Made by a program: the position numbers and the translations under genes
In this document: positions 1 through 16,647 of the stretch, in pieces
Numbering within the stretch: position 1 is the stretch's first letter
Layout: every line of letters starts with the position of its first letter
The notes under the pieces: model-generated
Databases searched by the model: none
Told to the model about the DNA's origin: nothing
What the model saw: the letters and a program-made list of their open reading frames with translations, nothing else
Source: a bacterium
Lineage (GTDB): Bacteria > Zhuqueibacterota > Zhuqueibacteria > Zhuqueibacterales > Zhuqueibacteraceae
DNA: 64,000 nt
Direction: 5' to 3'
NCBI GenBank assembly: GCA_044869275.1
Contig: JBIOXB010000034.1
Coordinates: 41,968-105,967, forward strand

Positions 1-1385
1 CACAAGATCATCAGCCCGGTCGCGCGCCGGCTCAGCTTTTTTCCTGCCTGAAAAATTTTGCCAATCATGCTCGTCCCGCACGCTGCGTGCCCTCTTGCTT
101 TCACGGTGCTGTGCTCCATGGTGTGATTCGCTTGCGAAAGTGAACTCATGCCCTGTCATCTCGGTTCATGCCGCCCCGACGACTTGCCAGTCGCTGTTTC
201 AAGCCGGAATCAATGCTTCAGAAAAGCCGCCCACAAACGGCGGCGGCTCCCTGAGCGGTTTTTCTCAAATGAAAAGACGCCACAACATTGACGCAATCGC
301 TATGCCATTGAAATAAATGCCAAATCGTAAAATCTTGCTGGCAGATTTCCGCATTCGGGCTGGTATTTTCACTTGTAATTACAGCCCGCGCGTTTCATTG
401 CGGACATTGTTTCAGCCGCAAACAGGAGGTTTGAAAATGTTGGGGGAAGCAGACGGTTGAAGGAGGATAGAGGTGAGACGAGTGATGTGTGTCGCGAGAA
501 AGGGGAAGAGAGAAAGGAGAAAGTGGAGTGGGTAGAGGGTCGGGCAGCAAGGGTTTTGAAAACCGCCGTTGCCTCAGAGTTATTCTATTTTCTCATGGAA
601 ACAATACTCGATAGATTGAAAGAAGCTTGGCTCCGGTACTACCCCTAAATGCGAGTGCTGAATCTACTGAAAAGATGTGATTGAAGTGAGACGTGGAATC
701 ATATCCCAACAGTTCACGCTCATGAAACGCATCGGCAAGAGATAGTTTTGTGGTTAAGAGTCAGCAGTATTTTCGATAAATAATTGCAATGAAAACTGCT
801 GTTTGCATATTTCTCGCAGACCCTCCTCTTCAATTTTACCGGCAAAACCCTTCTACTTGGCGCGCTTCTTGCTCTTAATTTCGATTAGCACGTTTCACAG
901 CAAGCCTCGTTACAGCGACAGACAAGAAGTTGAAAAGTGTAGTCCAATCGTCGCAACTGTAGCCAGGAGGTCTGCGCGACTATTCGTAGCTTACGACTGC
1001 ATCATTCGTGCCCACCCTTTCTTTCGCTGAATTCAAAATACCTAGCAGCGCTGTCACAGATCACGAGAAAAGCTTCCCGGGAATTGTAAGAAAAGACTAT
1101 CAATTTTATACAGCGGCGTACTTTTCTCGCACCTAATCTTTGATGCTTCCTTTTGGCGTGCAAAAATAGCCTGCGCACCTGCCAATATTACGCAGTCGCT
1201 ATGGAATGAAAGTAATTGAACCAGGAGAGAAGCGCCAGGCAGTTTTGCTCCGGCGCATGAGAATGTCGCATTCGATGCCAGTCCGGCACATGCAAGGGTC
1301 TCCTCTCCAAAAGCATGTTAGGAGGAGATTCTTCCTACGGTATCGCTTTCTACTCCGAGCGAAGAGCCAACAAAAGGAACCTGCC

Positions 1386-2330
1386 ATGAGCAAGCCCAAT
1401 CACCAGGGACGGCAGGAAAATCGCAACGGAATGCACCAGCCCCGGCACGAGGCTGCCGCCCAACCGGGCTTTGCCGCCGCGAAGCCGGACATTTCCTTTT
1501 TCTTTCCCGCGTTCGACGACGCCGGCACGGTGGAAAAACTCGCCCTCGCCGCGAGCGCGGTGCTGCGCGAAGTCGCGAACCAGTGGGAAGTGATCATCGT
1601 CAACGACGGCAGCTTCGACAACACCGGCGAAGTGGCCGACGCTTGCGCGCGGAAGTATGAAAACATCGTGGTCAAGCATCACCGGTACAATCAAGGCTAT
1701 GGCGCCGCGCTCAAAACCGGCTTCAAAACGGCGCGCTACGATTTGATTTTTTACACCGACGGCGACATGCAGTACGATCCGGAAGAATTGAAATTGCTGC
1801 TGCCGCTGTTGCGCGACGACGTCGCCATCGTCAGCGGCATCAAGTCCAAGCGTGCGGACCCTTGGGACCGCGTGGTGAGCGCGAAGATTTACAACTATGT
1901 CGTGCGTCTGTTCTTCCGCATCCACGTGCGCGACGTGGATGCGGCGTTCAAATTGATCCGCCACGAGGTGCTGCAAAATATGGAGCTGACCTCCAACGGC
2001 GGTTTCATTTGCGCCGAGCTGTTCGCCAAGGCGCGCCAACTGGGCTATCAGGTGGTACAGCATCCGGTGAGCCATTACCAGCGCACCTACGGCCGCTCCT
2101 CCGCGTTCAATCTGCTGTTTATCCTCCGCTCCACGCTCGAGCTCATGGACTTATGGTGGACGATCATGGCACGCGACAAATTCTTTGCCGCAAGACAGAA
2201 CTTTTGGAGACGCATCCTTTGGAGAAAACCCTCGCCCTTGCCGGAGGCCAGCCCGTCCGCCCCGAATTCCTGGTCTTCGGCAAACCCCGCCTCGAAGCAG
2301 CAGAAATCGACGAAGTCGTCGCCTGTCTGA
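1386..2330 (+). CDS. Glycosyltransferase family 2 (ArnC/DPM1-like polyprenol-phosphate glycosyltransferase)
   Basis: Motifs FFPAFDD, IIVNDGSFDNT, NQGYGAALKTG, YTDGDMQYDP, DVDAAFKLIR; start moved to ATG 1386 after AAAGGAA. Confidence 0.88.
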   Translation: MSKPNHQGRQENRNGMHQPRHEAAAQPGFAAAKPDISFFFPAFDDAGTVEKLALAASAVLREVANQWEVIIVNDGSFDNTGEVADACARKYENIVVKHHRYNQGYGAALKTGFKTARYDLIFYTDGDMQYDPEELKLLLPLLRDDVAIVSGIKSKRADPWDRVVSAKIYNYVVRLFFRIHVRDVDAAFKLIRHEVLQNMELTSNGGFICAELFAKARQLGYQVVQHPVSHYQRTYGRSSAFNLLFILRSTLELMDLWWTIMARDKFFAARQNFWRRILWRKPSPLPEASPSAPNSWSSANPASKQQKSTKSSPV

Positions 2331-3415
2331 AATCCGGCTGGATTTCCACCGGCCCGCGCGTGGCCAAGTTTGCCGCGCAGTTTCGCGATTACATCGGTTG
2401 CCAGCATGCCGTGCCGCTAAACTCGTGCACCGCGGGCTTGCACCTGGCGATGCTGGTGGCCGGCATCCAGCCCGGGGACGAAGTGATCACTTCGCCGCTC
2501 ACTTTTGCCGCTTCCGCCAATACCGTCATTCATTGCGGGGCCAAACCCGTATTCGTCGATGTCGATCCGCACACCTGCTTGATCAAAGCGGAAGAAATTG
2601 AAGCTCGGATCACCAGAAAAACGAAGGCGATCCTCCCCGTGCATTTCGCCGGCCGCGCATGCGACATGGACACGATCATGGCGATCGCACGCAAACACCA
2701 TCTCACCGTGATCGACGATGCCGCGCATGCGATCGAAACGGCCTATCACGGCACAAAGGTTGGGAACATCGCGGATCTCACGGCATTCAGTTTCTACGTC
2801 ACGAAAAACATCATCACCGGCGAAGGCGGGATGGTGACCACGAACAACGCGGAATGGGCGGAGAAGATTCAGATTTATGGCTTGCACGGCATGAGCAAAG
2901 ACGCGTGGAAGCGCTACTCCAGTGATGGCTTCAAGCATTATCAAATCGTATATCCCGGTTACAAGTACAATATGATGGATTTGCAGGCCGCACTGGGGAT
3001 ACACCAATTGGCGCACGTGCACGAGTATCTCAAAATCCGCGAACAAGTGTGGAAGGCATACGACGAGGCTTTTCGAGATCTACCGCTGTACACGCCGCCT
3101 CCCGCCGAAAAAGACACGCTGCATGCGCGGCATTTGTACACGCCCATGATCGATTTGTCCCGTTTGCAGGTGGACCGCGACACGGTGATGCAAGCACTGA
3201 TCAAAGAGAACATTGGCACGGGCATTCACTTCATCTCGCTGCACCTGCACGATTACTATCGCCGCACCTTTGGCTTCCAGCGCGACGATTTCCCCAATGC
3301 GCGCTGGGTTTCCGAGCGCACGATTTCATTGCCGCTGTCGGCAGCGTTGACGGACCAGGACGTGAATGACGTGATTACGGCAGTGCGGAAGGTGCTGCGG
3401 GCTTATCAGCGGTGA
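2219..3415 (+). CDS. DegT/DnrJ/EryC1/StrS (ArnB-like) PLP-dependent sugar aminotransferase
   Basis: SGWISTGP, NSCTAGLHLA, DDAAHA, FSFYVTKNIITGEGG, GYKYNM; probable TTG start at 2219 with GGAG upstream. Confidence 0.92.
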   Translation: MEKTLALAGGQPVRPEFLVFGKPRLEAAEIDEVVACLKSGWISTGPRVAKFAAQFRDYIGCQHAVPLNSCTAGLHLAMLVAGIQPGDEVITSPLTFAASANTVIHCGAKPVFVDVDPHTCLIKAEEIEARITRKTKAILPVHFAGRACDMDTIMAIARKHHLTVIDDAAHAIETAYHGTKVGNIADLTAFSFYVTKNIITGEGGMVTTNNAEWAEKIQIYGLHGMSKDAWKRYSSDGFKHYQIVYPGYKYNMMDLQAALGIHQLAHVHEYLKIREQVWKAYDEAFRDLPLYTPPPAEKDTLHARHLYTPMIDLSRLQVDRDTVMQALIKENIGTGIHFISLHLHDYYRRTFGFQRDDFPNARWVSERTISLPLSAALTDQDVNDVITAVRKVLRAYQR

Positions 3416-3507
3416 GCGGGAATAAGGCCAAAGAGTGGGTGGATAATCAATGATATACCTGTTTCAAGCAGTGGGTTTGAAGGAAGCGCGCAGCGGGGCG
3501 TTGACGT

Positions 3508-3959
3508 ATGCGAAATAAACTGCTTTATGGCGACAATTTGGACGTTCTGCGAAAGGACTGATCGGAAAAGCGGTAAGGTTTATCGCTACTATTTAGACGA
3601 AGGAAAGATCGCCGAGGATTACTGGATAGATATTGAAACCCTGAATCGAGAAGATAGAGAGCGTCTTGGATATCAAACTCAAAAGCCCGAAGCTTTGCTG
3701 GAACGTATTATCAAATCCAGCAGCAATGACGGCGATTTTGTCTTAGATGCTTATTGCGGCTGTGGCACGACCGTTGCAGTTGCTGAGAGACTAAAACGCA
3801 ACTGGATTGAAATTGATATAGCCTATCAAAGCATTAGCCTAATCTTGAAAGGATGAGACCGAAAAGGTGATTTCTCAAGTCAAGTCAGGCAGCGTCAATC
3901 GCGGAACGATAGCCACCTTGCGCGGTGACATGGAGCGCGAGAAAGCACAAATCGGTATA
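3508..3959 (+). pseudogene. Internally deleted site-specific DNA methyltransferase (N4/N6 type) with restriction-endonuclease-like C-terminal fragment
   Basis: Three frame-shifted pieces: MRNKLLYGDNLDVLR; RLGYQTQKPEALLERIIKSSSN..VLDAYCGCGTT; VISQVKSGSVNRGTIATLRGDMERE. The DPPF/Y catalytic region is absent. Confidence 0.8.
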
Positions 3960-3984
3960 AGGAATCAAAACATCACTGCAAAGG

Positions 3985-4647
3985 TCAACTCGCCTTGTAT
4001 AAATCGGCGGGATCTCCGGCGAGTATCAGCGCAATAATCTCTCTTTCACCGGGAAACTCCTGCGCAAATAGCCAATCCACACGCAGCCAGAAGCCAGGAA
4101 TAACCGTGGAACGAACCACGCCCATATGGTCGAGAGGAATGTCTTTCCAACTACCACCACTGTTCTTCCAGAAGCTTGCGGTTTGCCGAAAGGCATCAAT
4201 GACCCAGTATTCACGCACGCCGAACTTGGCGTACAGCTCTTTTTTCTCCATCAAATCCAAACGCCGGCTACCAGGCGAGACGAGCTCGATGACAAGATCG
4301 GCGGGACCCTCCAAGGCTTTGCCTTTGCTTTGCGGCAGTTTGGCGTTGCTGATAAACATAATATCCGGCTCGGGTGCGTCGATTTCGGATAATTTCATGG
4401 CGGCGCGCGAACCCAACACGTGCCCGATTTTTTTCTCTCGAACGTAACCGCGCAAAAGCATTAGCAGGAACCCAAACAAATCTTCGTGCTCAAAGGTGGG
4501 TGGAGCAGCCATATAAATAACCCCATTGATAAGATCGGCTTTTTGATCCTCACGAATGATCGTGCAAAACTCGTCGAAAGTGATCAGTTCTGGCGGCGGC
4601 GTTTGTCGCGGCAGAGGGCGAGTCAAAATACCAACATCGATAGCCAT
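3985..4647 (-). CDS. Uma2 family (DUF820) PD-(D/E)xK endonuclease-like protein
   Basis: DLINGVIYM..P..EHE, PEPDIMF, GPADLVIELVSPGS..D..EKKELYAKFGVREYWVID. Confidence 0.92.
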   Translation of the reverse strand: MAIDVGILTRPLPRQTPPPELITFDEFCTIIREDQKADLINGVIYMAAPPTFEHEDLFGFLLMLLRGYVREKKIGHVLGSRAAMKLSEIDAPEPDIMFISNAKLPQSKGKALEGPADLVIELVSPGSRRLDLMEKKELYAKFGVREYWVIDAFRQTASFWKNSGGSWKDIPLDHMGVVRSTVIPGFWLRVDWLFAQEFPGEREIIALILAGDPADLYKAS

Positions 4648-4755
4648 TTGTCTATGCTCTGTATTGAGTCCGTATTTTATTAAAAAGCCCCATTGCTAAA
4701 ATAGCAATAAATTTCAAACAAACAAGCTGTACTTCAATACGAAGCCGGCACCGAT

Positions 4756-5376
4756 TTAAGTGCCGTTGTTTCCTCGAAAAATCCCCACCATCTCTCTTCC
4801 TCCCGGAATAAAAAAAAATTTTTGAAATGCGGGAAAAGTTTTGAATACTTGTGCCAGCGATTCTTCGCGGAAGCGCTCGCCGGAATAGGAGGAATCTTCT
4901 TTTGTTGGATGCGTCAATATCTGGCTGAGCTTGGCGAGCCAGGCCAGGCGCGAATCGGAAAGGTTGCGCACGGGCTCGGCGATGATCACTTTACGGCGCG
5001 CGGCGGCGAGCATTTTGGCCACAATCTCTTCGGCACGCGGCAGGAACTGATAAAGGCTGGCCTGCATCAGCACGATGTCCGCGCGCGGAATTTCATCCTG
5101 CCAGACATTGAAAACGCGCGCATTCACCCCGTGTTTTTGCGCCGCACGCACGAACGCTGGCGACAAGTCCAGACCGAGATACTTCACGGATTTCGCGCAC
5201 AAATGCTGGCGATAAAGATAGCAATCCCCCGCGCACAGATCCACCACGGAAGATCCTTCCGGAATCTCGCTGGCAAGGGCACGATAACGTGCTGCAAAGT
5301 GGCGGCCGTATAACACGCGCATGAGCGCGCGATAGAGGCGTTCATTGGAATAGATGAGCGAAACCGATGGCGACAT
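4756..5376 (-). CDS. Class I SAM-dependent methyltransferase
   Basis: SVVDLCAGDC motif I, YLGLDLSP motif II. Confidence 0.8.
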   Translation of the reverse strand: MSPSVSLIYSNERLYRALMRVLYGRHFAARYRALASEIPEGSSVVDLCAGDCYLYRQHLCAKSVKYLGLDLSPAFVRAAQKHGVNARVFNVWQDEIPRADIVLMQASLYQFLPRAEEIVAKMLAAARRKVIIAEPVRNLSDSRLAWLAKLSQILTHPTKEDSSYSGERFREESLAQVFKTFPAFQKFFFIPGGREMVGIFRGNNGT

Positions 5377-5456
5377 GGTTGATCCATTCTAAAGCAATCG
5401 AAACAAGGCTTACTGAAAAAGCAAAGATTTCACGCTTAGATTGAAAGGCGAAGCGC

Positions 5457-7304
5457 CTATTGCGTTCCCCCTGCTTGCACCACGGAGGGATCCCGAATAT
5501 CGTAAATGCTAATAGTCGGGCGCTCTAGGAAGCCCATGCCCCAGGGATGCTGGTGCGCCGCGGGCGGCACGAATTCCTGCACTAGCCGGCCCTGCTCTTC
5601 TAGCTCGCTGTAAAACTCCTGCCACGATTTGGCCATTTCTGGATACTTGGCGCACGTGGCGGCGTCGAAGAACCTTCTCTTCAACAAACTGGAGCTGATC
5701 ACAAAGTGCACCCCGCGCTCGCGGTAATATGCCAGCGGGCGGGCGCGCCATGTGGAAAAGTCAGGCAAGTTCTGCAAAACAGCGCGCATCGAATCCAGCG
5801 CGGCGAAGTCGAGCTGATAGTCGAACCCGTGGCGCAGAATCCAGGCACTCAGAGGATTTTGCAGCAGCGCCAGTTTCATGGACAGCTTTTTCCTGCTGGA
5901 TTCCTCCGTGATGAGTTCCATTTGTGAGATGCTGAGTTGGCCCGGCGGTACCGGCGGCAGCATCCACGAGCCCGCGCGCATGGCGACGTTCGTTTCCCGG
6001 GGAATGTGGGCTTTGATCCAATCCGCCGCCTGTACGCGCGTGTCTTCCTGCATTGCGATCCAGCACCACTGGCCGGCGTAATAAATCGACGGCGCAGAGA
6101 AGAGCAATGCCAGCGCGGTCGCAGCCCATGCTGTGGGCCATCTAAAGCGCGTGATCATTTCCGATGCGCGCGTGATAAAAATGCCGGCATAAATGCACCA
6201 AAACGGCAGTACCGGAATGAGATAGCGGTCAACTTTGAGTGTGGCATTACCCATCAACAAATAAAAAAAGAACGGGAAACAGAGGAGCAGGAGGTCTCGG
6301 GTGCGGTGTTTCCACAGCGAGTACAGCATGCCGGCAAAAACTGCGCTCACCAACATCAATCCCAGCCCGCCGCTCGGCGTGACCGCGGTGAAATAGCCCC
6401 AGAAACCGGATTCTGGCACGCCGAGATGGCCGGATTTGGAATGAAAGATCTGGGACAGCAAGCCGCTGGCGAAGCTTTTGAAATCGAGCAAGGCATACGG
6501 TGTTCCCACCAAAAAGCCCGCGGCCGCGCACAGGGAGAGGATAGGAATCGCACGAGAAAAAATCGCACGGCGCCAGGAGGCACCGGCCGCGCGCTGCCGC
6601 AGGACATGGGCGGCGAGCACCGTCAACAGAATCAGGCCCACGGGATATTTCGCCGACGCCGCCAAGCCGGCCACGAAGGCCGCCCAGTGAAGGCCGCCGG
6701 GCTTTCGGGTTTGATAAGCGCGCACACAGAGATAATAAGCCCAGACGGCGAAAAAAGCGGAGGGCACATCCGTGGCGAGAAAATGCGAGTCCGTGAAATG
6801 CACGTAAGCGAAAGTCAAAAACCAGGCGGCGACCAGCGCGACCGTTGCGTTCCAACATCGCCGCGCGGAAAGATAAGTGAAATACACGGTGGCGGCACCG
6901 AGCGTCGCCGCCAGCAGGCGGCCGAGCAAGTGAAAATAAAAAATGTTTTGTACAGCGTAATCATAAAATTGCGACAGACTTCCGATGCTGCCGCACGCGT
7001 GCAGCGCCATTCCTGTCATCAAATAAAGAAACGCCGTGAGGTATATGCAGAGCGAAGGATACTCAAAAAAATGAGGATTCAAATCGTACGCCGGGCTTTT
7101 GAGCATGTCCAAGGCTTTTTGCGCGATGAATTGCTCGTCGGGATGCAACACGTAAGGATGGCCGAACCAGGTTCCCCACACACGAATAGCGAGAGCCAGA
7201 GCCAGAATCACGAACAGTGCTCTGGGAGATTTTTTCGGCAACAAGGCAACTGCCGGTGCGGTGGCGGTGGCGTGAGCTTTAGGTAGAATCATGGTAAGAA
7301 ACAT
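5457..7304 (-). CDS. GT-C membrane glycosyltransferase (family 39 / ArnT-PMT-like)
   Basis: HPDE loop, LNPHFFEYP, many TM segments, ATDVP, AASAKYP, RYLIPVLP, DTRVQAADWI. Confidence 0.85.
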   Translation of the reverse strand: MFLTMILPKAHATATAPAVALLPKKSPRALFVILALALAIRVWGTWFGHPYVLHPDEQFIAQKALDMLKSPAYDLNPHFFEYPSLCIYLTAFLYLMTGMALHACGSIGSLSQFYDYAVQNIFYFHLLGRLLAATLGAATVYFTYLSARRCWNATVALVAAWFLTFAYVHFTDSHFLATDVPSAFFAVWAYYLCVRAYQTRKPGGLHWAAFVAGLAASAKYPVGLILLTVLAAHVLRQRAAGASWRRAIFSRAIPILSLCAAAGFLVGTPYALLDFKSFASGLLSQIFHSKSGHLGVPESGFWGYFTAVTPSGGLGLMLVSAVFAGMLYSLWKHRTRDLLLLCFPFFFYLLMGNATLKVDRYLIPVLPFWCIYAGIFITRASEMITRFRWPTAWAATALALLFSAPSIYYAGQWCWIAMQEDTRVQAADWIKAHIPRETNVAMRAGSWMLPPVPPGQLSISQMELITEESSRKKLSMKLALLQNPLSAWILRHGFDYQLDFAALDSMRAVLQNLPDFSTWRARPLAYYRERGVHFVISSSLLKRRFFDAATCAKYPEMAKSWQEFYSELEEQGRLVQEFVPPAAHQHPWGMGFLERPTISIYDIRDPSVVQAGGTQ

Positions 7305-7656
7305 GAATGAGCAGAGCAGGGCGCGCGCGAAGCCCCAAGGATCAGAACGGACGTGTGCCCGGACAAATTTTAGCCGGGCCGTGCGGACTTTTCTTGCGGA
7401 AGCCCCGCCTTACCTAGTGATGATTTTTGCTACCGCCCCTCAGCGCGCGATCGGAAGAATGTTTGCCCGGTTGGGCGAAGAATTCTCTCAAAGAAATACC
7501 GGCGTTAAACCCCGACTGCGTAAAACTTGAGCTTTGCAGGAACGACATGAACGAGGCCGCACGTTGATCGAAAACACACTCCTCCCAAAGCGACAAAGAT
7601 TCCACGTGGGTGTTTTTGTTCGTGGGGGCTTTTGCAAAAAGTCAATAAATCCGGCG

Positions 7657-8481
7657 TCACTGCTGCAGACTATCCAATAATTTTCGGGCGGATTGATGGT
7701 AGAAATCGTGCGGCGGGCGGTGGAGGAGTTCTAACAAGGCGCCTCTGGCCTCTTCGAGGTGCCGCTGCTGCAGATGAGCGTGTGCCAGAAACCAAAAGAC
7801 TTCGGCGGGCGCCTCCTCCTTGGCCAAGGGGGACAATCGCTGCACCGCTTTTTCAAACTTGCGATTTTGCAGCAGGACGATTCCCCACAGCATTTGGATT
7901 TGAGGCTCCTGCGGATAGTGGTTCGCGAAAAGCTCGAGCGAATCCGCGACGGCGGCAAACTGTGCTTTGCGATAGAGCGGGTAGAGCGTGTTGAGCCGTT
8001 GCCGCAAACGCGCATCGCTGATCGCGGGAAAATCATCCGGCCAATCGAACGCCGGTGGAATGGGGGCGGAGCCGCCTTTCCCGGCGAGAAAAGCCTTGAA
8101 ATTTGCGTCGTCGCCCGATTCGTGCAACGTTTTCTCGGCTTCGTGAAAGAGCCAGACAACAGTGGTCACGATCAAAATCAACGCGGCATAATTGAACGCG
8201 GGCCGCCACTTTCCCAAGCTCCAAGACAGCCTTTCGAAACCGTGCGCGAAACGATCGGCATACCTGGCCAGAATGCCGGCGTCGGGCGCATAGGCGGGCG
8301 CAAAAATATATTGGCCGTGCCGCTCCATCAGCAGCGCGGTTTTTTGCACCCACAGAACGTTATGCGCGCATTCGTCACAGCCTAAAAAATGAGCTTCAAA
8401 AGCTTCCTGTTCTTCGGGCGGCAGTTCTTCACGAACATAGGCCACGATTTTATCAAACTGGTTGCGATATGGGCACTTCAT
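7657..8481 (-). CDS. Anti-sigma factor: N-terminal zf-HC2 (ZAS), one TM helix, C-terminal TPR-like domain
   Basis: AYVREEL..EEQEAFEAHFLGCDEC (HxxxCxxC); TM YAALILIVTTVVWLF; TPR-like helices (WGIVLLQNRKFEKA, FWFLAHAHLQQRHLEEAR); 24 bp downstream of an ECF sigma. Confidence 0.85.
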   Translation of the reverse strand: MKCPYRNQFDKIVAYVREELPPEEQEAFEAHFLGCDECAHNVLWVQKTALLMERHGQYIFAPAYAPDAGILARYADRFAHGFERLSWSLGKWRPAFNYAALILIVTTVVWLFHEAEKTLHESGDDANFKAFLAGKGGSAPIPPAFDWPDDFPAISDARLRQRLNTLYPLYRKAQFAAVADSLELFANHYPQEPQIQMLWGIVLLQNRKFEKAVQRLSPLAKEEAPAEVFWFLAHAHLQQRHLEEARGALLELLHRPPHDFYHQSARKLLDSLQQ

Positions 8482-8505
8482 GAGAGTTTCAACTCCAGTT
8501 GTCGC

Positions 8506-9054
8506 TCAGCCATACAGACTTCTCAGGACGGGGTCTTTTAAACAGAGCTTGCGCAGCCGCTTCAGGGCATCGGATTTCAGGCTATACACCTTGTCCGGCG
8601 GCAGATTCAGTTGCTGCGCTACCTCTCCTTCCTTATACCCTTTGTAGAACACCAATTCCAAAACCTGGACATATTTCTTCGGCAGCAGCTTGAGTTTTTC
8701 GCGCAGATAGTATTTAAGCTCCCCGGCCTCGGCCTCGTCGCGAAACAGGGAGTCCATGCCCTCCGCATAGGTGAGCGGTGCGGTGCGGCGTTGCTGCCGG
8801 CCTTTTTTGCGGAAATGCGTTTGCGCCACCTTGGTGGCGATGCCGCATAGAAACGTGCTGGGCTCGGCTTCGTTGCGGCCTTCGTAGTTCTGGAAGCTGC
8901 GCAAAGCTGCCACCATCGTGTCCTGCGTCACTTCCTCCAAATCGTGGCCCTCCAGGCCCCATTTTTTTTGCAGAAAGAATTTTATGAATGGCCGGCGGCC
9001 GGCGATCCAATCGGGGTCGATATTTTTACCGGGCTTGGCGATAGCTCCTCCCAC
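8506..9054 (-). CDS. ECF (sigma-70 group 4) RNA polymerase sigma factor
   Basis: Region 2 DLEEVTQDTMVAA..STFLCGIATK; region 4 LPKKYVQVLEL.FYKGYKEGEVAQQLNLP..KVYSLKSDALKRLR. Confidence 0.92.
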   Translation of the reverse strand: MGGAIAKPGKNIDPDWIAGRRPFIKFFLQKKWGLEGHDLEEVTQDTMVAALRSFQNYEGRNEAEPSTFLCGIATKVAQTHFRKKGRQQRRTAPLTYAEGMDSLFRDEAEAGELKYYLREKLKLLPKKYVQVLELVFYKGYKEGEVAQQLNLPPDKVYSLKSDALKRLRKLCLKDPVLRSLYG

Positions 9055-9357
9055 CTCCAGTTTACATTGAGACTCGCGCAGCGCACAGATGCAGGCTTTT
9101 GTATAATTTTGAAAAAAATATGTGAGAAATCAACCTCTGTTTTCGTCTATATGAGCAGAGAGAAGAAACAGGCGACACTCAGGGGCCCAGATTTGGCGCT
9201 TCGCCTTCCTTCACGGAATCGGGAAGAACAGGAGTGCACACGAGTGTCGATCTGATTTAGCTCGGCAATTTCAATCTATCACGACGCGCCGAGCTGCAGT
9301 CGGCCGGCTGTTCTGCATGTCAGGCAATTCAACTCTTATCCGGAAAGGATAACAAAC

Positions 9358-9543
9358 ATGCGAACAGTCATGTCTTTCTTGCTGGTGTTGTTGTTTGCGC
9401 TGCTGGCCGGGTGTGAAACTTACGCGCCCACCGCGCCGAACAACGAGAAGAAACCTGCTGTGCAAAGCGACAGGATCAATGAAGAATGCGGTACGTGCGG
9501 CAATCCTCCTCCTCCGGGCAGCGGTGGTGGTGGAGGTGGTTGA
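9358..9543 (+). CDS. Small lipoprotein (61 aa) with CxxC and Pro/Gly-rich C-terminus
   Basis: RBS AAAGGA; lipobox LLAG|C; mature part ends EECGTCGNPPPPGSGGGGGG; followed by a terminator-like hairpin. Confidence 0.75.
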   Translation: MRTVMSFLLVLLFALLAGCETYAPTAPNNEKKPAVQSDRINEECGTCGNPPPPGSGGGGGG

Positions 9544-9592
9544 TTCCCGTCACAACTCGTCGGCTTCATTATTGGTGATTGGTTTCTTCATG

Positions 9593-9627
9593 CGACTCCG
9601 CCGTTTATCCCGGCGGAGTCGTATTTT
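9593..9627 (+). terminator. Probable intrinsic terminator
   Basis: Perfect 11-bp stem CGACTCCGCCG/CGGCGGAGTCG, 7-nt loop, followed by TATTTT. Confidence 0.7.
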
Positions 9628-9814
9628 ACTAACTTGCTTCTCATATTATTGCTTGCCTTCAGAATTCTTTTTCATAATCTTGCGCCAACTTATTCTCTTC
9701 CTCCGGGCGGCGGTGGTTGATGCCGTTAACGCACTCGCTGCGGGCATTCGCAGTACTTCACTTCGTCGAGCGACTCTGCTGCTGAAAATGGCGGAATCGA
9801 GTTTTTACAGCGGT

Positions 9815-9908
9815 TGTCATTCTGGGAGAAGCTTCTCTCAGCTAGGGCATAAAGGCCCGTTGCGCAGATAGTGCCCGGTACTTGGGAAGATTCTTTCTGA
9901 GAATGACA
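9815..9908. repeat. REP/MITE-like element with TGTCATTCT...AGAATGACA ends
   Basis: Terminal inverted repeat related to the elements at 29333, 34899 and 59264. Confidence 0.6.
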
Positions 9909-9928
9909 GGACGCGGGCCACGATGGCA

Positions 9929-12900
9929 TTACCCTTGTAACAATTTTGCTTTTCTATTTTTTCGCCCAAACAGCATACTACCCGCCATCAGCAAAATCGC
10001 TATAATCGCGGCCAGCGCTATCCAATCTCTTGCACCCCACGGCAGGGGCAGTTCTACGCGCCAATCGCGGCCGTAATAAGCAAATGCGGCCCAATCGGTG
10101 AAATCATAATTGGGGTGATTCAGTATTTCGAGCTTCGCGGTTTGCAGGGCAGCCACGGTTGATTGTCCAGCGCGCAATGCTTGGTAGTAGGCTTTGAAAA
10201 ACTCCGCTGTGGAATAATCATCGACTTTCCACAAGCTGGCGATCATGCTCGGCGTGCCGGCGGCGCGAAAAGCCTGCACAAAACCCTCAAAGCCCTCGCT
10301 TTCCACGAATGTGCCGCGCACAGTTTCGCATCCGCTCAAAACCGCTATTTTCACCGGCAAGCTCATTTGAAAAATCTCAAACGCAAAAAGCCTTTCCGGC
10401 TCACTCATACCGCGTGGCGTGGACAAAAGGATTTCGCCGAACAAGGGCTCGGCCGACTGCCAAAAACTATGGCTGGCAATGTGCAGCCAGTCGCTTTGAT
10501 GCATAGCGGGCAGCAGGGATTTGCGTGTGAGCTTAGCGCCGGTCAAATCCGTCTGGCACTTCACCAAACGGCGTATCATTTCGGCTTCCAATTCACCTAC
10601 CGTTCCTCTCGGCCAACGCGCATTGCGTGGATTTGAACCGTTGGAGTTTTCGGACTGCAATACCGGTGCGGCTGCCAGCAAGAATGATTGTACCCGCAAA
10701 TCATCCTGCTCTTCTTGTTGCAAATCAGCAAGCGTGCTGCCGTAGCGCACTGCAAAGCGTTCAATCAAAAAGAACGCATCGCTCCGCTCTGTCGAGGTGA
10801 GCGGCAAGATTTCAAAAGGCAGAGCATGCAAAACGCCGTCTGGCACGAGGGACAAAGTGGTTTCCTTGCGTTCCGCCAGAAAATCTTGCAGCAGCAGGCG
10901 ATAGAGACGGCGCGCCGCAACGGTATCAAATTTAGCCACGCTTTCCCTAATGGCGTCGGCATTCTTGGTGTTCATGCCTTTGTGAATATCCAGCAGTTGT
11001 TGCTCCAGCGCATGACGGCCTACAGCAACGGAAGCTGCGCGCAGCGTATCCGCCGCGATGAAAAAGACCAAAGTCGAGGAATCACCCACAAAGAAGGTGA
11101 GCACCATTTCTCGGCGCGCGCGTAGATTCCGGCGAAAATCATGAATGGGAAAGGGAGGTGCGTCCAGCCAAAGCGCGGCATTCATGCCGAGCACACTGTC
11201 TTGCAAAGCTGCATGCTGGCGCTCCCAGGTCGCAATTTTTGTGGCCAAACCAATTTGGAATTCCGGCGAATCCGCAACTGCTTTTTGCACACGCGCCTTT
11301 TGTAGAAGAGAATCCAACATCGCGAGCTGGCAGGCTTTTGCGCTGTCTGTTGGCGCGTGACGAAGCTGTTGCACCTGCCAGCGCCTGCGCTTGACAATCA
11401 AATCGCGCGCCCGTTCGGTTTCAGCCAAAGCCCGCTCGACCTGACCATTCTTCACATAAGCCTGGCTTAGGCCGAAAAAGATTTCGCGTTCGACACTTGA
11501 TAAGGAAGACAGATGCTGGGGGCCGAAGCGGTGCGTTTGCGTCATGGTGGTTCTTGCAGCGTCTTCATATATTTTAATGGCTTCTGCACGTTGCCCGGTT
11601 TGCCAGGCAATCTCCGCAAGCAATGAGAGAATTCTTAAATTCGTTTCATACGCTGGTGTCTCTCGTATGGTTGCCAGTGCGTGGGCTAATCTATGTTTGG
11701 CTTGGCCATACTGTTGCGCGCCCATTTCGATTTGCGCGAGCAATATTTGCGCGAGCATAAATGGCGTCATCAGGTTGGCATTTTTCGCTGCAATAGTTGA
11801 TTCTGACAACAACGCATGCGCTCGGTGAGCTTGACCGAGACGCATCGCAATTTCACCACGCAAAAGCTTCAACTTCAGCAACTGCTCGAAATTAGGTTTT
11901 TTTTGTGCGAGCTCCTGTGCCTGTTCGCAATAGTTTAGTGCTTCGGAGTACCTTCCTAGTGCAGTTAAGAAGGAAGCGAGATTCTGACAGCCGAAAGAGA
12001 AATACGAATCCAAATTTCGACTACGCACATAGGTCATGGCTTTCTGCGCAATTTCGAGCGCTTGAATTTTGCGGTCTGCCTCAAATTCAATTAGGGCGAG
12101 ATCAAACAAAAGGGAGGCTGCGCTATCTTTTAGGCCCACAGAATCAGCGATCTCAAAAGCCCTATGTGCATAAGCCAGCGCATCGTTCCTTTTCCCTCTC
12201 TCAAGAGCCAATTCTGAAAGATAATCGTAGGCGTGAAACAACAACTCGCCATCGAGATATTGTCTGGCACGCTGAGCAGCAGTCGTCAAAGTTTGCTCCG
12301 CTTTCGACCATTGGTGCTGCTGAAGCTGGATCTGGCCCAGAAGCAACATCAGCCGGCCTTCCCATACCCGATTACCAATCCTATGCGCCGATTCGAAACC
12401 TTGCTCAAGCGTTGCAATTGCTTTCTGCCATTTCCCCAGCTTAAGTTCAGCCTGAGCACGGCCATGCAACAAACGCGCTCTACCTTCTTCATCCTTTGCG
12501 ACTTGGCAATGGGCGAGGCCATCTTCATGTACATTCTTCGCTTCCTGCCAGGATTCTAGATTTCCAAGGTTATATCCAAGAGCATAGTATATGCGCCAAT
12601 GACGGTCGTTGTTTGCGAGCAGAGCGCGCAGAGTATCACGGGCCAATTTGAAATCGTTATTTTTAGAATGGCACAACGCCAAGGCAAAAACCTGCCGCCA
12701 ATTTCTATGATGCTGTTGGTACTGCCGCCGCAGCAGCTCGAACGCGGCCGCGCTGTCCTTGAGCTCAAAGCTTTTATTGACGAAGATTTCGTAGGGATAG
12801 ACGCAGTGGCTGTTTTCAACCACGGCCAGCCGTGCGTATCGCAAGCTGCTATCGGGTCTTTGCTGCGATTCCCACAGAATGGCATGGCCGCCCGCTATGT

Positions 12901-13255
12901 CGCCTTGCCAATGCTTCGCCGCCAGCAAAGAATCAAAAAACACATGTCCCGCCGCAAATCTCCTTTCATAAACAAAAACATAAGCTGCGGTTTCGTACAA
13001 GGGTGGATATATTTCTTCTTTGCGAAGCAGGCTGTCAATGCGCGCATGCGCCTCGGCGAAATCGCCCCGGCCCATGGCATAACGGACTTCCAAATAGTCG
13101 CGCGGCACCTGCAGGTCTTTCGCCGGACCTTCTTGCTTCGCCTGGCCCAAGTCTGCCAGCAGCAAAAGAATGATCACGGCGGTGCATGCCGGTCCGGGGA
13201 GGCCATGGGCGCGGCTGCGAACGGGCAGTGATTTTTTGACAAGGATGAGAGTCAT
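9929..13255 (-). CDS. TPR-CHAT (caspase-like) protein, paralog 1; signal peptide and C-terminal TM anchor
   Basis: Long TPR array; CHAT motifs LVPDGVLHALPFEIL, DWLHIASH, AVLSGCET, AFRAAG.PSMIASLWKVDD, WAAFAYYG; C-terminal IALAAIIAILLMAGSMLF+RKNRK; start 13255 (ATG) or 13324. Confidence 0.9.
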   Translation of the reverse strand: MTLILVKKSLPVRSRAHGLPGPACTAVIILLLLADLGQAKQEGPAKDLQVPRDYLEVRYAMGRGDFAEAHARIDSLLRKEEIYPPLYETAAYVFVYERRFAAGHVFFDSLLAAKHWQGDIAGGHAILWESQQRPDSSLRYARLAVVENSHCVYPYEIFVNKSFELKDSAAAFELLRRQYQQHHRNWRQVFALALCHSKNNDFKLARDTLRALLANNDRHWRIYYALGYNLGNLESWQEAKNVHEDGLAHCQVAKDEEGRARLLHGRAQAELKLGKWQKAIATLEQGFESAHRIGNRVWEGRLMLLLGQIQLQQHQWSKAEQTLTTAAQRARQYLDGELLFHAYDYLSELALERGKRNDALAYAHRAFEIADSVGLKDSAASLLFDLALIEFEADRKIQALEIAQKAMTYVRSRNLDSYFSFGCQNLASFLTALGRYSEALNYCEQAQELAQKKPNFEQLLKLKLLRGEIAMRLGQAHRAHALLSESTIAAKNANLMTPFMLAQILLAQIEMGAQQYGQAKHRLAHALATIRETPAYETNLRILSLLAEIAWQTGQRAEAIKIYEDAARTTMTQTHRFGPQHLSSLSSVEREIFFGLSQAYVKNGQVERALAETERARDLIVKRRRWQVQQLRHAPTDSAKACQLAMLDSLLQKARVQKAVADSPEFQIGLATKIATWERQHAALQDSVLGMNAALWLDAPPFPIHDFRRNLRARREMVLTFFVGDSSTLVFFIAADTLRAASVAVGRHALEQQLLDIHKGMNTKNADAIRESVAKFDTVAARRLYRLLLQDFLAERKETTLSLVPDGVLHALPFEILPLTSTERSDAFFLIERFAVRYGSTLADLQQEEQDDLRVQSFLLAAAPVLQSENSNGSNPRNARWPRGTVGELEAEMIRRLVKCQTDLTGAKLTRKSLLPAMHQSDWLHIASHSFWQSAEPLFGEILLSTPRGMSEPERLFAFEIFQMSLPVKIAVLSGCETVRGTFVESEGFEGFVQAFRAAGTPSMIASLWKVDDYSTAEFFKAYYQALRAGQSTVAALQTAKLEILNHPNYDFTDWAAFAYYGRDWRVELPLPWGARDWIALAAIIAILLMAGSMLFGRKNRKAKLLQG

Positions 13256-13326
13256 TCTGCGGCAAATACATCTTCGCTTTCCGAGCAGCGCCCTAGGGAG
13301 AGGCAAGACTGCAAAACCTAACACGA

Positions 13327-16300
13327 CTATTTATTATGAAATTTGATTTCGTGTTTTCTTAGTCTGACAGCCACTTGCCAACCGGCCAAAAACAGAACCA
13401 CAATCATTCCCGCCAGCACCAGCGCTTCCTTTATGCCCCACGGCGCCGGCAGCTGCACACGCCAGTCGCGGCCATAATAAGCAAACGCGGCCCAATGCGT
13501 GAAATCATAATTGGGGTTAGCCAGCATCTCGAGCTTCGCGGTTTGCAGCGCGCGCATGGTGGATTGCCCGGCGCGCAAAGCTTTATAGTAAGCTCTGAAG
13601 AATTCTGAAGTGGGAAAGTCATCGACCTTCCACAAGCTGGCGATCACACTGGGCGCGCCCGCGGCGCGAAATGCCTGCACAAAGCCTTCAAAGCCCTCAC
13701 TGTCCACGAACGTGCCGCGCACGGTCTCGCATCCGCTCAATACCGCCATTTGCACCGGCAGCGCCATTTGAAAAATTTCAAAAGCAAAAAGCCGTTGCGG
13801 CTCGCTCCTTCCCGGCGGCGTGACCAAATCGATCTCGCCGAACAGAGGCTCGGCCGGCCGCCAGGTGCAGTGGCTGGCAATATGCAGCCAATCGCTCTGC
13901 TGCATTGCCAGCAACAAAGAGTCACGCGTGAGATTTGCGCCGGCCAGATCCGTTTTGCATTGCACCATACTGCGAATGATTTCGGCTTCCAAATGGCCCA
14001 CGGTTCCCGCCCGCCGGTCGGCATCGCGCTGTGCGATCAAGCCATTTGTCTCCGCCGGCGGCGCGGCCGGCGCGGCCGCCAGCAAGAACGATTTCACCGG
14101 CAAATAATCCTGCCCGTCTTGTTGCAAATCCGTTAGCGTGCTGCCGTAGCGCACGGCAAAACGCTCGACCAAGAATGGCGCGCGGCCTTGTCCTGAACTG
14201 AGCGTCAGGATTTCAAACGGCAGGGCATGCAAAGCGCCATCCGGAACGATGGCCAGCGCGGTTTCAGGCCGCTGCTCGAGAAAGTCTTGCAGCAGCAGAC
14301 GATAAAGATCATGGGCCGCTGCCGTATTGAGCTGCATTTTTCCCCGCGCCAGCGGTTCGGCATGTCCGGTACTCATGCCTGCATGAATGCGCAGCAACCC
14401 CTGCTCCAAGCTTCGGCGTCCAATGGCAATGGCTGCGAACTGCAGGGTGTCGGGCGCGAGAAAAAAGACCAGAGTAGAAGAGTCTCCCACAAAAAAGCTG
14501 AGCGCGATCTCCTGGCGGGAATTCAGGCTGCGGCGAAAGTGGCTGAGGTCAAAAGGAAGCGTCTCAAGCCAGGGCTTCACGGCACCTTGCACGGCCTGTT
14601 GCTGGCGCTCCCCTTCTGCAATTTTCGCCGCCCAATCGAGCTGGAGCGAAGTCGAATTCGTGGCCGCTCTCTGCAAGCGTGCTTCTTGCAGCATGGCATC
14701 GAGGCTGGCGAGCTTGCGGATTATCGTGCTATCCCTTGAGGCATGAGCGAGCTGCTGCGCATGCCAGCGTTTGCGCTTGACGATCAGATCACGCGCCCGC
14801 TCGGTCTCGACCAAGGCGCGTGCAATCTGCCCCATCTCGGCATAGGCACGGCTCAAACTAAAAAAGACTTCACGCTCGACTCGCGACAAGGAAGACAGAT
14901 GCTCCGACCCAAAGCCCGGCATTTGCGCAAGGATGATTTTGAGCGCATCTTCATATACTTTGAGTGCCTGCGGCCGTTCTCCGGTCCGCCACGCGATCTC
15001 AGCAAACAACGCGAGCATTCTCAGGTTCGTTTCATAGGCCGGTGTTTCAGGCAATGCCGCCAAGGTGCCGGCCAATCTTTGTTTCGCCTGGCGGTATTGT
15101 CCGGCACCCATCTCTCTTTGTGCAAATAGTATTTGTGCTTCGGTAAACGCCGCCATCAGCCCGGCATGCCGTGCTGACTCGGCCGCTTCGGCCAAGAGCG
15201 CGCGCGCTTCGCGCGTGCGTTTCAGAGGAAATAAAATTTTGGCGCGCAGCAATTTCAAATTCAACAATTGTTCGGCATTATTTCTTTTTCCCGCCAAACG
15301 CTGTGCTGCTTCGCAATGCAACAAGGCTTCTGGGTGTTTTCCCAGCAGATCCAAATTGCAGGCCAGATTTTGATGAAGATAAGGCAATTGCCAATCCAGC
15401 CCGTGGGCCAGTGCATATTGCAAGGCTTCTTGCAAGAGCTCGAGCGCTTGCGCTTCGCGGCCGGCGGACAATTCAATGAGCGCGACACGTTGTATGAGCG
15501 ATCCGGCGTAGGTCTTCATGCCCAGAGAATCGGCAACGTGATAGGCCATATACGTATATTGGAGCGCTTCGCTCCTCTTGCCAATATTGTCGGCCAATTG
15601 CGACAAGTAATAATAGGCATGCAGCAAGAGATCGCCCAGGGCATAGTTCCGGGCGCACTGGACGACGGCCTCGAAAGTTTGCCGCGCCTGCAACCATTGC
15701 TGCTGCTTGAGTTGAATCTCGCCCAGCAAAGAAAGCAGCCAGCCTTCACGCAAACGATTGCCGATGCGGCGCGTCAAATCCAAGCCCTGCTGCAAAGTCG
15801 CCACCGCCGCTTGCCACTGTCCCAATGCCTGTTCTGCCTGGGCGCGGCCGTATAACAACCGCACCTTCCCCTCCTCGTCATTCACCTGGTCACAATAAGC
15901 AAGGCCTTCATCATAAGCCCTCTTTGCTTCCTGCCAAGAGGCGGTGAGCCACAAGCCCTGTCCCAAAGAAAAATAAATTCGCCAATGCCTGATATTGCTC
16001 GCAAGCAGAGCACGCAAGGTATCCACTGCTACTTTGTGCTGGCTGTGCAGGGAATACCATGAAGCGATGGCATAAGCCAGCCGCCAGTTTTCCGGACGCT
16101 GCGGGCGCCATCGCTGCAGGAGCTCAAGTGCCGCCTGGTTACTTTTACACTCGAAACTCTTCTCCACAAAGATTTCGTAGGGATAGACACACTGGCTGTT
16201 TTCGAGCACGGCCAGCCTGGCGTACTTCACGGTGCTGTCTGGCCGCTGCTGCGTGAGCCAAAGAATGGCGTGACCGCCAGCGACATTGCCTTGATGGTGC

Positions 16301-16647
16301 CCGGCCGCCAGTAATGAATCAAAGAACGCATGCCCGGCGACGAATCTTCGTTGGTAAACGTAAATATAAGCCGTAGTCTCGTAGAGAGGGGGATAGACAT
16401 CTTTTTCCTGGAGCAGGCGCACCGTCAGTCGATGCGCTTCGGCGTAGTCGCCTCTTCCCATGGCTAAACGAACCTGGGGGTAGGTTTGGGGCATTTGCTG
16501 CTCCCGCGCCGCGCTGGGGCTGCCGGCGGACAAAGCGCAAACCGCGAGGGCAATGGCTGCCGGTTGGCGCAGAAACAGGATACACCTCGCCCTGGGGTTA
16601 GGTGCGCTGGTAGAATCGGAAATCCTTGGGGAAATGGCACTGATCAT
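13327..16647 (-). CDS. TPR-CHAT (caspase-like) protein, paralog 2; signal peptide and C-terminal TM anchor
   Basis: Same architecture: AAIALAVCALSAGSPSAA signal, TPRs, IVPDGALHALPFEIL, WLHIASH, VLSGCET, SLWKVDD, TM ALVLAGMIVVLFLAGW+RLRK. Confidence 0.9.
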   Translation of the reverse strand: MISAISPRISDSTSAPNPRARCILFLRQPAAIALAVCALSAGSPSAAREQQMPQTYPQVRLAMGRGDYAEAHRLTVRLLQEKDVYPPLYETTAYIYVYQRRFVAGHAFFDSLLAAGHHQGNVAGGHAILWLTQQRPDSTVKYARLAVLENSQCVYPYEIFVEKSFECKSNQAALELLQRWRPQRPENWRLAYAIASWYSLHSQHKVAVDTLRALLASNIRHWRIYFSLGQGLWLTASWQEAKRAYDEGLAYCDQVNDEEGKVRLLYGRAQAEQALGQWQAAVATLQQGLDLTRRIGNRLREGWLLSLLGEIQLKQQQWLQARQTFEAVVQCARNYALGDLLLHAYYYLSQLADNIGKRSEALQYTYMAYHVADSLGMKTYAGSLIQRVALIELSAGREAQALELLQEALQYALAHGLDWQLPYLHQNLACNLDLLGKHPEALLHCEAAQRLAGKRNNAEQLLNLKLLRAKILFPLKRTREARALLAEAAESARHAGLMAAFTEAQILFAQREMGAGQYRQAKQRLAGTLAALPETPAYETNLRMLALFAEIAWRTGERPQALKVYEDALKIILAQMPGFGSEHLSSLSRVEREVFFSLSRAYAEMGQIARALVETERARDLIVKRKRWHAQQLAHASRDSTIIRKLASLDAMLQEARLQRAATNSTSLQLDWAAKIAEGERQQQAVQGAVKPWLETLPFDLSHFRRSLNSRQEIALSFFVGDSSTLVFFLAPDTLQFAAIAIGRRSLEQGLLRIHAGMSTGHAEPLARGKMQLNTAAAHDLYRLLLQDFLEQRPETALAIVPDGALHALPFEILTLSSGQGRAPFLVERFAVRYGSTLTDLQQDGQDYLPVKSFLLAAAPAAPPAETNGLIAQRDADRRAGTVGHLEAEIIRSMVQCKTDLAGANLTRDSLLLAMQQSDWLHIASHCTWRPAEPLFGEIDLVTPPGRSEPQRLFAFEIFQMALPVQMAVLSGCETVRGTFVDSEGFEGFVQAFRAAGAPSVIASLWKVDDFPTSEFFRAYYKALRAGQSTMRALQTAKLEMLANPNYDFTHWAAFAYYGRDWRVQLPAPWGIKEALVLAGMIVVLFLAGWQVAVRLRKHEIKFHNK

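Follow-up and report, generated by a model that had tools for sequence, protein, structure and literature searches.

A small lipopeptide gene travels with a TPR-CHAT protease and a sigma/anti-sigma pair in one family of KSB1 bacteria

TPR-CHAT proteins, in which a CHAT protease domain follows a tetratricopeptide repeat array, are described as widespread but poorly understood. In DdvA-DdvS of Myxococcus xanthus, a zinc anti-sigma factor with the same zinc motif as the one described below is fused to a periplasmic TPR-CHAT (PMC11506125, PMC6061681). Cleavage of a truncated form of DdvA by RseP has been shown, while site-1 cleavage by the CHAT domain is only proposed; the signal that activates DdvA is unknown, and hence this cleavage was not testable there (PMC11506125). 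Here we describe a five-gene cassette at positions 7657 to 16647 of a 64,000-nucleotide stretch (the window) of a KSB1 bacterial genome (assembly GCA_044869275.1, contig JBIOXB010000034.1). It encodes a sigma factor of the extracytoplasmic function (ECF) type, a zinc anti-sigma factor, a 61-amino-acid lipopeptide, and two tandem TPR-CHAT proteases, and it is almost certainly a real functional module. The cassette appears to work like DdvA-DdvS but is not a member of that system, because its parts are unfused and no defence island was seen beside it. What is new in it is the splitting off of the protease and the presence of a lipopeptide that has a predicted sigma promoter to itself.

The cassette and DdvA-DdvS have in common an ECF sigma factor, a CHCC zinc anti-sigma domain, a single transmembrane (TM) helix, a predicted periplasmic TPR-CHAT with a His/Cys dyad, an available RseP, and a proposed site-1 cleavage by CHAT. 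In contrast to DdvA-DdvS, the cassette encodes its TPR-CHAT as a distinct protein, predicted to be exported and to have a C-terminal anchor of its own; the anti-sigma factor ends at 274 amino acids with a short TPR alone and is not a fusion, and a lipopeptide under predicted sigma control is added. An earlier note on this DNA had taken both the topology and the peptide to be uncharacterized. The topology has a precedent, as a periplasmic TPR-CHAT with a proposed site-1 role on a zinc anti-sigma factor is known from DdvA-DdvS (PMC11506125), but searches of full-text literature brought up neither the lipopeptide nor its promoter. These searches, made mostly outside subscription papers, also listed no Pro/Gly lipopeptide under sigma control together with a TPR-CHAT that is a protein of its own, exported and TM-anchored; supplements of genomic surveys could hold such an arrangement.

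Several other described systems resemble the cassette in part. The Csx29-Csx30-CASP-sigma system of type III-E CRISPR (Craspase) has the TPR-CHAT fold and the same logic of protease, anti-sigma factor, and sigma factor (PMC10028731). However, Craspase is cytoplasmic and triggered by RNA via Cas7-11, while the cassette protease has a signal peptide and a TM helix and lies among metabolic genes. The ECF sigma factor scored 31 bits against the CASP-sigma model NF041236, which has a cut-off of 100, and the fetched neighbourhoods showed neither CRISPR nor CBASS genes, although distant sigma targets may exist. HetF of Anabaena is a membrane-bound CHAT protease that cuts a specific regulator, PatU3, after Arg117; its TPRs are periplasmic and its CHAT domain lies across the membrane, whereas the cassette is predicted to have both on the exported side (PMC9457339). 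ECF genes also adjoin caspase-like genes in the caspase + ECF + DUF1822 neighbourhoods (PMC8195603). A lipopeptide is not mentioned for HetF-PatU3 or for these neighbourhoods in the accessible parts of the reports (PMC9457339, PMC8195603), and modules of a protease and a small effector have been described elsewhere (PMC12642450). ECF54 sigma factors are encoded near a TPR-CHAT gene and proteolytic control has been proposed for them, but they are found only in actinobacteria, lack an anti-sigma factor, and have subtilase and carboxypeptidase-like neighbours (PMC7826278, PMC8999054). The cassette does not belong to ECF54, as it comes from KSB1, has an anti-sigma factor, and showed none of those neighbours. 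In RRNPP regulators (Rap/Phr, NprR/NprX) and in separase-securin, a small partner, either a cognate peptide or a pseudo-substrate, determines the output of a TPR superhelix. The cassette resembles them, by analogy only, in pairing a TPR superhelix with a small peptide partner. RRNPP systems are cytoplasmic and use re-imported peptides, whereas the cassette peptide would be lipid-anchored and the output would be a periplasmic protease.

The distribution of the genes indicates that the stable core of the cassette is the peptide together with the protease. All five open reading frames (ORFs) described in the earlier note were recovered, and their domains were confirmed by Pfam. The anti-sigma factor (274 amino acids, 7657..8481) and the ECF sigma factor (182 amino acids, 8506..9054) are encoded on the minus strand, the lipopeptide precursor (61 amino acids, 9358..9543) on the plus strand, and the two proteases, CHAT-B (9929..13324) and CHAT-A (13327..16647), on the minus strand. 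The genome sample consisted of 167 KSB1 genomes, to which metagenome loci were added. CHAT orthologues of this clade came from 15 genomes, all of family f1, and 14 metagenome loci, 29 loci in total. The sequence stops short of the peptide position in two of them, and in all 27 scorable loci a gene for a lipopeptide of 50-64 amino acids converges on the 3' end of the CHAT gene, with a 204-amino-acid ORF in between in one case. The ECF and anti-sigma genes are adjacent in 22 of 26 scorable loci; in the other four (G001, G004, L061, and L065) the pair is missing from the spot and peptide and CHAT are still together. At the ECF locus of genus g2 that is orthologous to the one in the window, peptide and CHAT are missing jointly. 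In the reverse search of the 167 genomes, full-length peptide matches were confined to f1 (the genome itself and 15 of 18 others), and all of them adjoin a TM-anchored TPR-CHAT gene except in G010, where the contig breaks. Weaker matches were the signal peptides of longer lipoproteins. The linkage between peptide and CHAT is far beyond chance, and the conserved linkage on which the earlier note had made its proposal depend was thus observed for the peptide and for the ECF/anti-sigma pair.

The CHAT and ECF trees each split into two sister clades, with a support of 0.96 for those of the ECF. Clade 1 includes the window and genera g1, g3, and g4 and has an anti-sigma factor with TM helix and TPR. 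Clade 2 includes genus g2 and metagenome loci, and its sigma factor is about 30-36% identical to that of clade 1. The cassette is conserved in one KSB1 family and was probably inherited vertically. Swapping of partners between sigma factors was considered and dropped, since the two ECFs are sister clades and fit an old duplication with differential loss. In the closest relative, G001, the ECF orthologue precedes a kinase-like ORF (L021:8626-10323), the anti-sigma gene follows a short ECF fragment on another contig (L189:1344-2322), and CHAT, two peptides, and the promoter remain at the old locus.

Although it matches no Pfam family, the peptide is by its pattern of conservation a real gene. 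It has a lipobox with Cys19, a PxxP motif, an acidic linker, and a poly-Pro/poly-Gly tail. In an alignment of 38 members C19, P53, and G59 are invariant, so that the lipobox Cys is present in all of them. The pN/pS ratio (nonsynonymous to synonymous polymorphism) is 0.30 over 10 disjoint pairs, showing purifying selection, and an AGGA-type ribosome binding site precedes the gene in the listed loci. The selection, the invariant Cys, and the ribosome binding site together support its being a gene. Lgt is encoded in the genome. Relatives of the peptide span 50-64 amino acids, and when 1.84 billion representatives were searched exhaustively with a profile, 49 matched, 16 of them at E up to 1e-10, suggesting that the family is small. 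The ESM Atlas gave nothing but matches below 0.9. At E up to 1, matches to 21 Pfam families were listed for the 38 peptides, and CATASP, the small protein with CATRA domains of the CATRA/CATASP protease systems, was not one of them. Two tandem 64-amino-acid lipopeptides with poly-Pro tails are encoded in a Candidatus Zixiibacteriota genome (MEZ5359988.1 and MEZ5359989.1; P0102, P0130).

Other roles for the peptide sequence were considered. An RNA hairpin in the Pro/Gly tail was rejected, as 17 of 23 peptides have a native tail whose fold is less stable than that of its synonymous shuffles and none of the 23 folds below z = -1.4. A role as a translation-arrest leader was dropped for this clade, since the peptide gene and the CHAT gene are convergent and no gene that the peptide could control lies downstream; it is possible for the distant peptides that are encoded upstream of CHAT. 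Similar Pro-rich lipopeptides were also looked for beside TPR histidine kinases of Bacteroidota, with no convincing case in 50 fetched loci.

The sigma factor very probably drives the peptide gene from a predicted promoter. The motif TGTGA-N19-GTCT, at 9121..9148 on the plus strand of the window, precedes the clade-1 peptides without mismatch in 12 of the 14 loci that have enough sequence, and with a single-base change in the other two. Five of the 14 were not used in deriving the motif, which held there. A looser form of it is expected 0.008 times per 420 nucleotides in this genome, and a matrix built without the window site ranks that site first in the genome. Clade-2 peptides are preceded by CAAGAT-N14-GAC instead (12/12), and a back-to-back copy of this second motif faces the clade-2 ECF gene in 10 of the 12 loci. 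The motif and the sigma paralogue thus travel together, which indirectly indicates that the sigma factor transcribes the peptide gene; the co-variation at fixed spacing supports the sigma control that had been suggested earlier, although the loci are related and the counts are not independent trials. In three of eight g2 loci the clade-1 motif lies before the clade-1 ECF gene itself, where no peptide adjoins the sigma factor. It was not found facing the ECF gene in 11 intact cassettes that were scanned, apart from two loose matches, and a genome scan with the promoter matrix gave no clear wider regulon.

The large genes encode caspase-like proteases that are predicted to be held in the inner membrane. 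Both match TPR_12 and CHAT (E about 1e-51; PF12770 scores 173-179 bits), and their His/Cys dyads are His952 and Cys999 in CHAT-B and His926 and Cys973 in CHAT-A. The dyad is intact in all 26 clade sequences, as had been assumed earlier, and it lies in a CHAT domain placed after the TPR array, as in the clan CD caspase-like CHAT proteases, to which these proteins belong by sequence and fold. Hydropathy gives each protein an N-terminal hydrophobic segment and a C-terminal TM helix with a basic tail, from which we infer export and anchoring by the C-terminal helix. With these segments and the single TM helix of the anti-sigma factor, the protease and the anti-sigma ectodomain are predicted to be in a common periplasm, and hydropathy thereby agrees with the envelope topology first proposed. 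The AlphaFold model of mature CHAT-A (predicted local distance difference test 87, predicted template modelling score 0.85) matches Csx29, separase, and DdvA in fold. The best match is Csx29 (Z 27.3, root-mean-square deviation (rmsd) 12.6, 588 residues aligned), and DdvA aligns over 635 residues (Z 20.8, rmsd 5.1). The TPR part matches the peptide-binding Rap/NprR proteins at Z about 21-22, a generic helical match. CHAT-A and CHAT-B are 59% identical (BLASTP), and CHAT-A is a tandem duplicate of CHAT-B. Two tandem proteases are present in the window as described before, but they are not a feature of the system, because the duplication is local and the 14 related genomes that have an orthologue gave one full-length match apiece. 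This genome has 13 CHAT matches in total.

The ECF sigma factor has the sigma70 region 2 and region 4 domains only (Pfam, and TIGR02937 above the cut-off), and its orthologues are 58-76% identical. It lies beside an anti-sigma factor of the DdvA-DdvS type, with a CHCC zinc site and one TM helix. The zinc motif, single TM helix, and TPR described earlier were recovered as a zf-HC2 match (E 9e-8), a TM helix at 94-112 by hydropathy, and TPR matches below threshold. The helix is followed by a variable linker and a short TPR domain that is predicted to be periplasmic (alignments A3 and A7). The zinc site, C3..H31-x3-C35-x2-C38, is invariant in 22 of 22 aligned anti-sigma factors. An RseP homologue above the cut-off is present in the genome, and its activity on the cassette anti-sigma factor is predicted only.

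We tentatively propose a split envelope relay like DdvA-DdvS with an added peptide regulator. That the zinc domain holds the sigma factor is established for CHCC anti-sigma factors, and here the zinc domain would hold the ECF sigma factor in the same way. Release or engagement of the TPR superhelix would lead CHAT to clip the linker of the anti-sigma factor, and RseP would complete the cleavage and free the sigma factor, by analogy with DdvA, where the RseP step alone has been shown. The freed sigma factor would then transcribe the lipopeptide gene from TGTGA-N19-GTCT, and the lipid-tethered, unstructured Pro/Gly peptide would bind the TPR-CHAT and feed back. Direct action of the peptide on CHAT is somewhat probable. 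Modelled as a complex, CHAT-B (135-1090) and the mature peptide (20-61) scored 0.11 against a mark of 0.32, a result that was counted neither way. The favoured sign of the feedback, which is a guess, is damping, with the peptide as a securin-like pseudo-substrate whose level or trafficking would report on the envelope.

The cleavage step of this relay has several results against it. The clade-2 anti-sigma factor is a zinc domain of 66-78 amino acids alone in 11 of 11 loci, lacking TM helix and ectodomain, and no gene with TM helix and TPR lies behind it in any of the 11. Genus g2 keeps the orthologous clade-1 ECF and TM-TPR anti-sigma factor in eight of eight genomes, and neither CHAT nor peptide was found in the fetched flanks of the pair in any of the eight; four of these genomes (75-99% complete) have no match of this CHAT clade to the queries used. 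The zinc-only anti-sigma factor and the CHAT-free pair are the main evidence against an obligatory cut by CHAT, and the obligatory site-1 role that the earlier note gave to CHAT is partly contradicted by them. No conserved candidate P1 residue was found in the anti-sigma linker of 13 full-length sequences, CHAT-dependent cleavage of DdvA has not been seen in M. xanthus (PMC11506125), and the peptide tail is variable in distant relatives, some of which lack the poly-Pro and some the poly-Gly. The g2 pattern and the zinc-only anti-sigma factor fit an old duplication with differential loss, and cleavage could take place in trans. Whether CHAT cuts the anti-sigma factor of the cassette is close to an even call, leaning slightly to the negative.

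The same observations suggest an alternative that we consider somewhat unlikely, in which the pathway is feed-forward only. The sigma pair would sense its own cue (zinc, redox, or another site-1 protease), the sigma factor would induce the lipopeptide, and the peptide would switch CHAT on or off against another envelope substrate. This accounts for the zinc-only anti-sigma factor, for the CHAT-free pair in g2, and for a peptide-CHAT linkage (27/27) that is tighter than that between CHAT and anti-sigma factor (22/26). However, the tie between CHAT and anti-sigma factor appears to be old. Many of the more distant KSB1 loci have an ECF gene, an anti-sigma-like gene, and a CHAT gene without a peptide, which points to the anti-sigma factor as an old CHAT substrate, and DdvA fuses both. 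In addition, the fetched loci share no conserved gene that could encode another substrate. In another alternative, distinctly unlikely in our estimate, the lipopeptide is itself the substrate, a lipid-anchored pro-peptide from which a CHAT cut frees the Pro/Gly tail, which would then serve as a diffusible signal or effector. The tight one-to-one linkage, the tandem peptide copies, and the acidic residue that often stands before the prolines fit this, and cleavage of small effectors by caspase-like proteases has been described (PMC12642450). It also agrees with a separate lineage of TM-anchored CHAT proteins, in which an unrelated protein with a Pro/Gly/acidic tail is encoded just upstream of CHAT in 11 of 29 genes, compared with 0/33 and 0/9 in two other CHAT lineages and 13/547 and 2/126 in controls. 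These upstream proteins give a lead but no proof. Some of the loci had already been viewed when the tail filter was set up, and among the distant small proteins several have either no signal peptide or a tail that is apparently cytoplasmic, so that they may not meet a periplasmic protease. Nor does an invariant P1 residue precede the tail.

A role as an anti-phage sentinel, in which the TPRs sense a periplasmic phage protein and the sigma factor switches on defence genes, would follow the example of DdvA-DdvS and Csx29-Csx30-CASP-sigma, which are defence regulators (PMC11506125, PMC10028731) with a common fold. It is very unlikely here, as the CHAT gene directly follows 2-oxoacid:ferredoxin oxidoreductase genes in genera g1, g3, and g4, PADLOC gave nothing beyond a weak generic TPR match, and no defence regulon appeared among the 30 best sites of the promoter scan. 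The peptide could also be a minimal sigma-induced lipoprotein, a tether with a low-complexity tail that lies beside the protease gene by accident, and the C-x4-PxxP start that is common in longer KSB1 lipoproteins (weak matches) agrees with this. Such an accident is extremely improbable, since full-length matches among the 167 genomes are confined to f1 and lie beside a TM-anchored TPR-CHAT gene except in G010, and the peptide follows CHAT through rearrangements and accompanies a second CHAT lineage.

The cassette makes the question of how a periplasmic TPR-CHAT is switched on testable in E. coli or in vitro, because it offers a candidate ligand of about 40 residues that is open to synthesis, a protease and a putative substrate that are separable, a predicted promoter for a reporter, and two natural paralogous sets with differing promoters as built-in specificity controls. 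A wider view is rather doubtful, namely that there is a class of envelope peptide-gated caspases in which membrane-anchored periplasmic TPR-CHATs read a Pro/Gly/acidic tail on interchangeable small carriers, with feedback via the ECF that makes the peptide. The carriers would be the 40-residue lipopeptide here and, just as doubtfully, 190-amino-acid lipoproteins and secreted or TM peptides in the separate lineage. If true, a TPR-CHAT sensor of bacteria would for the first time have an endogenous ligand, and this would offer a way to approach the missing trigger of DdvA-like systems.

Minor features of the window lie around the peptide gene. A palindromic element, GT[CT]GGCCG[AG]CTGT.C[CT]GCAT (9299..9318, plus strand), is found about 60 nucleotides before the peptide ATG and is near-invariant in 11 of 11 aligned clade-1 leaders; its 12-nucleotide core occurs four times in the 6.67-Mb genome. 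It was not seen in clade 2, and Rfam gave nothing credible across 7300-10000. It is possibly the operator of some regulator or a leader element. A sigma-54 reading was rejected because the spacing is off by one base from the consensus. A strong stem-loop 3' of the peptide gene (9590..9624, plus strand; z = -6.3 against 200 shuffles for the fold of 9575-9640) is probably a terminator between the convergent genes. The region 9634..9720 (plus strand) has 28 codons from a TTG, with a hydrophobic start and a PPGGGG end but no lipobox Cys, and is probably a second peptide copy that has decayed (repeat families D9 and D20). L001 and L061 have second copies at the matching place, and L007 has a degenerate one. 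Downstream of the anti-sigma gene, window positions 1206-7304 contain genes for a family 2 glycosyltransferase, a DegT aminotransferase, a Uma2 nuclease-like protein, a methyltransferase-like protein, and a PMT-family glycosyltransferase; these genes were not seen beside the cassette in relatives.

CHAT and ECF genes also occur together outside the clade. Of 60 CHAT loci from more distant KSB1 lineages of the protease, 37 have an ECF gene in the 4-14 kb that were fetched, and these genes belong to several ECF lineages; CHAT and ECF are found together in several Bacteroidota loci as well. Most CHAT-ECF loci beyond the clade are without the lipopeptide, and distant Bacteroidota CHAT-TM loci (L042-L056, L071-L077) gave no match to the peptide profile. 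One locus, L108, has a true lipopeptide homologue beside a CHAT gene of the separate lineage. This genome (G000) has four more clusters of ECF, anti-sigma-like, and TPR-CHAT genes (C14:83232-90897, C75:52235-56941, C222:4599-9464, and C255:9250-16498), in which there is no C-terminal TM helix and no lipopeptide. Look-alikes of the anti-sigma factor are common in Acidobacteriota, Gemmatimonadota, and Bacteroidota. A family of proteins of about 190 amino acids, with a Gly/acidic stretch and a PFP end, is encoded directly upstream of TM-anchored TPR-CHAT genes (L019:938-1534, L151, L153, and L160), and three of its members are lipoproteins. A distinct ECF clade was found in L017, L018, L112, L137-L139, L142-L144, L147, L148, L150, L155, L159, and L160. 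Where read, its operons encode the ECF, a small soluble His/Cys protein of 130-180 amino acids, a TM-TPR protein of 350-400 amino acids, a variable small ORF, and a TPR-CHAT-TM protein. The His/Cys protein and the TM-TPR protein together look like a two-gene anti-sigma factor.

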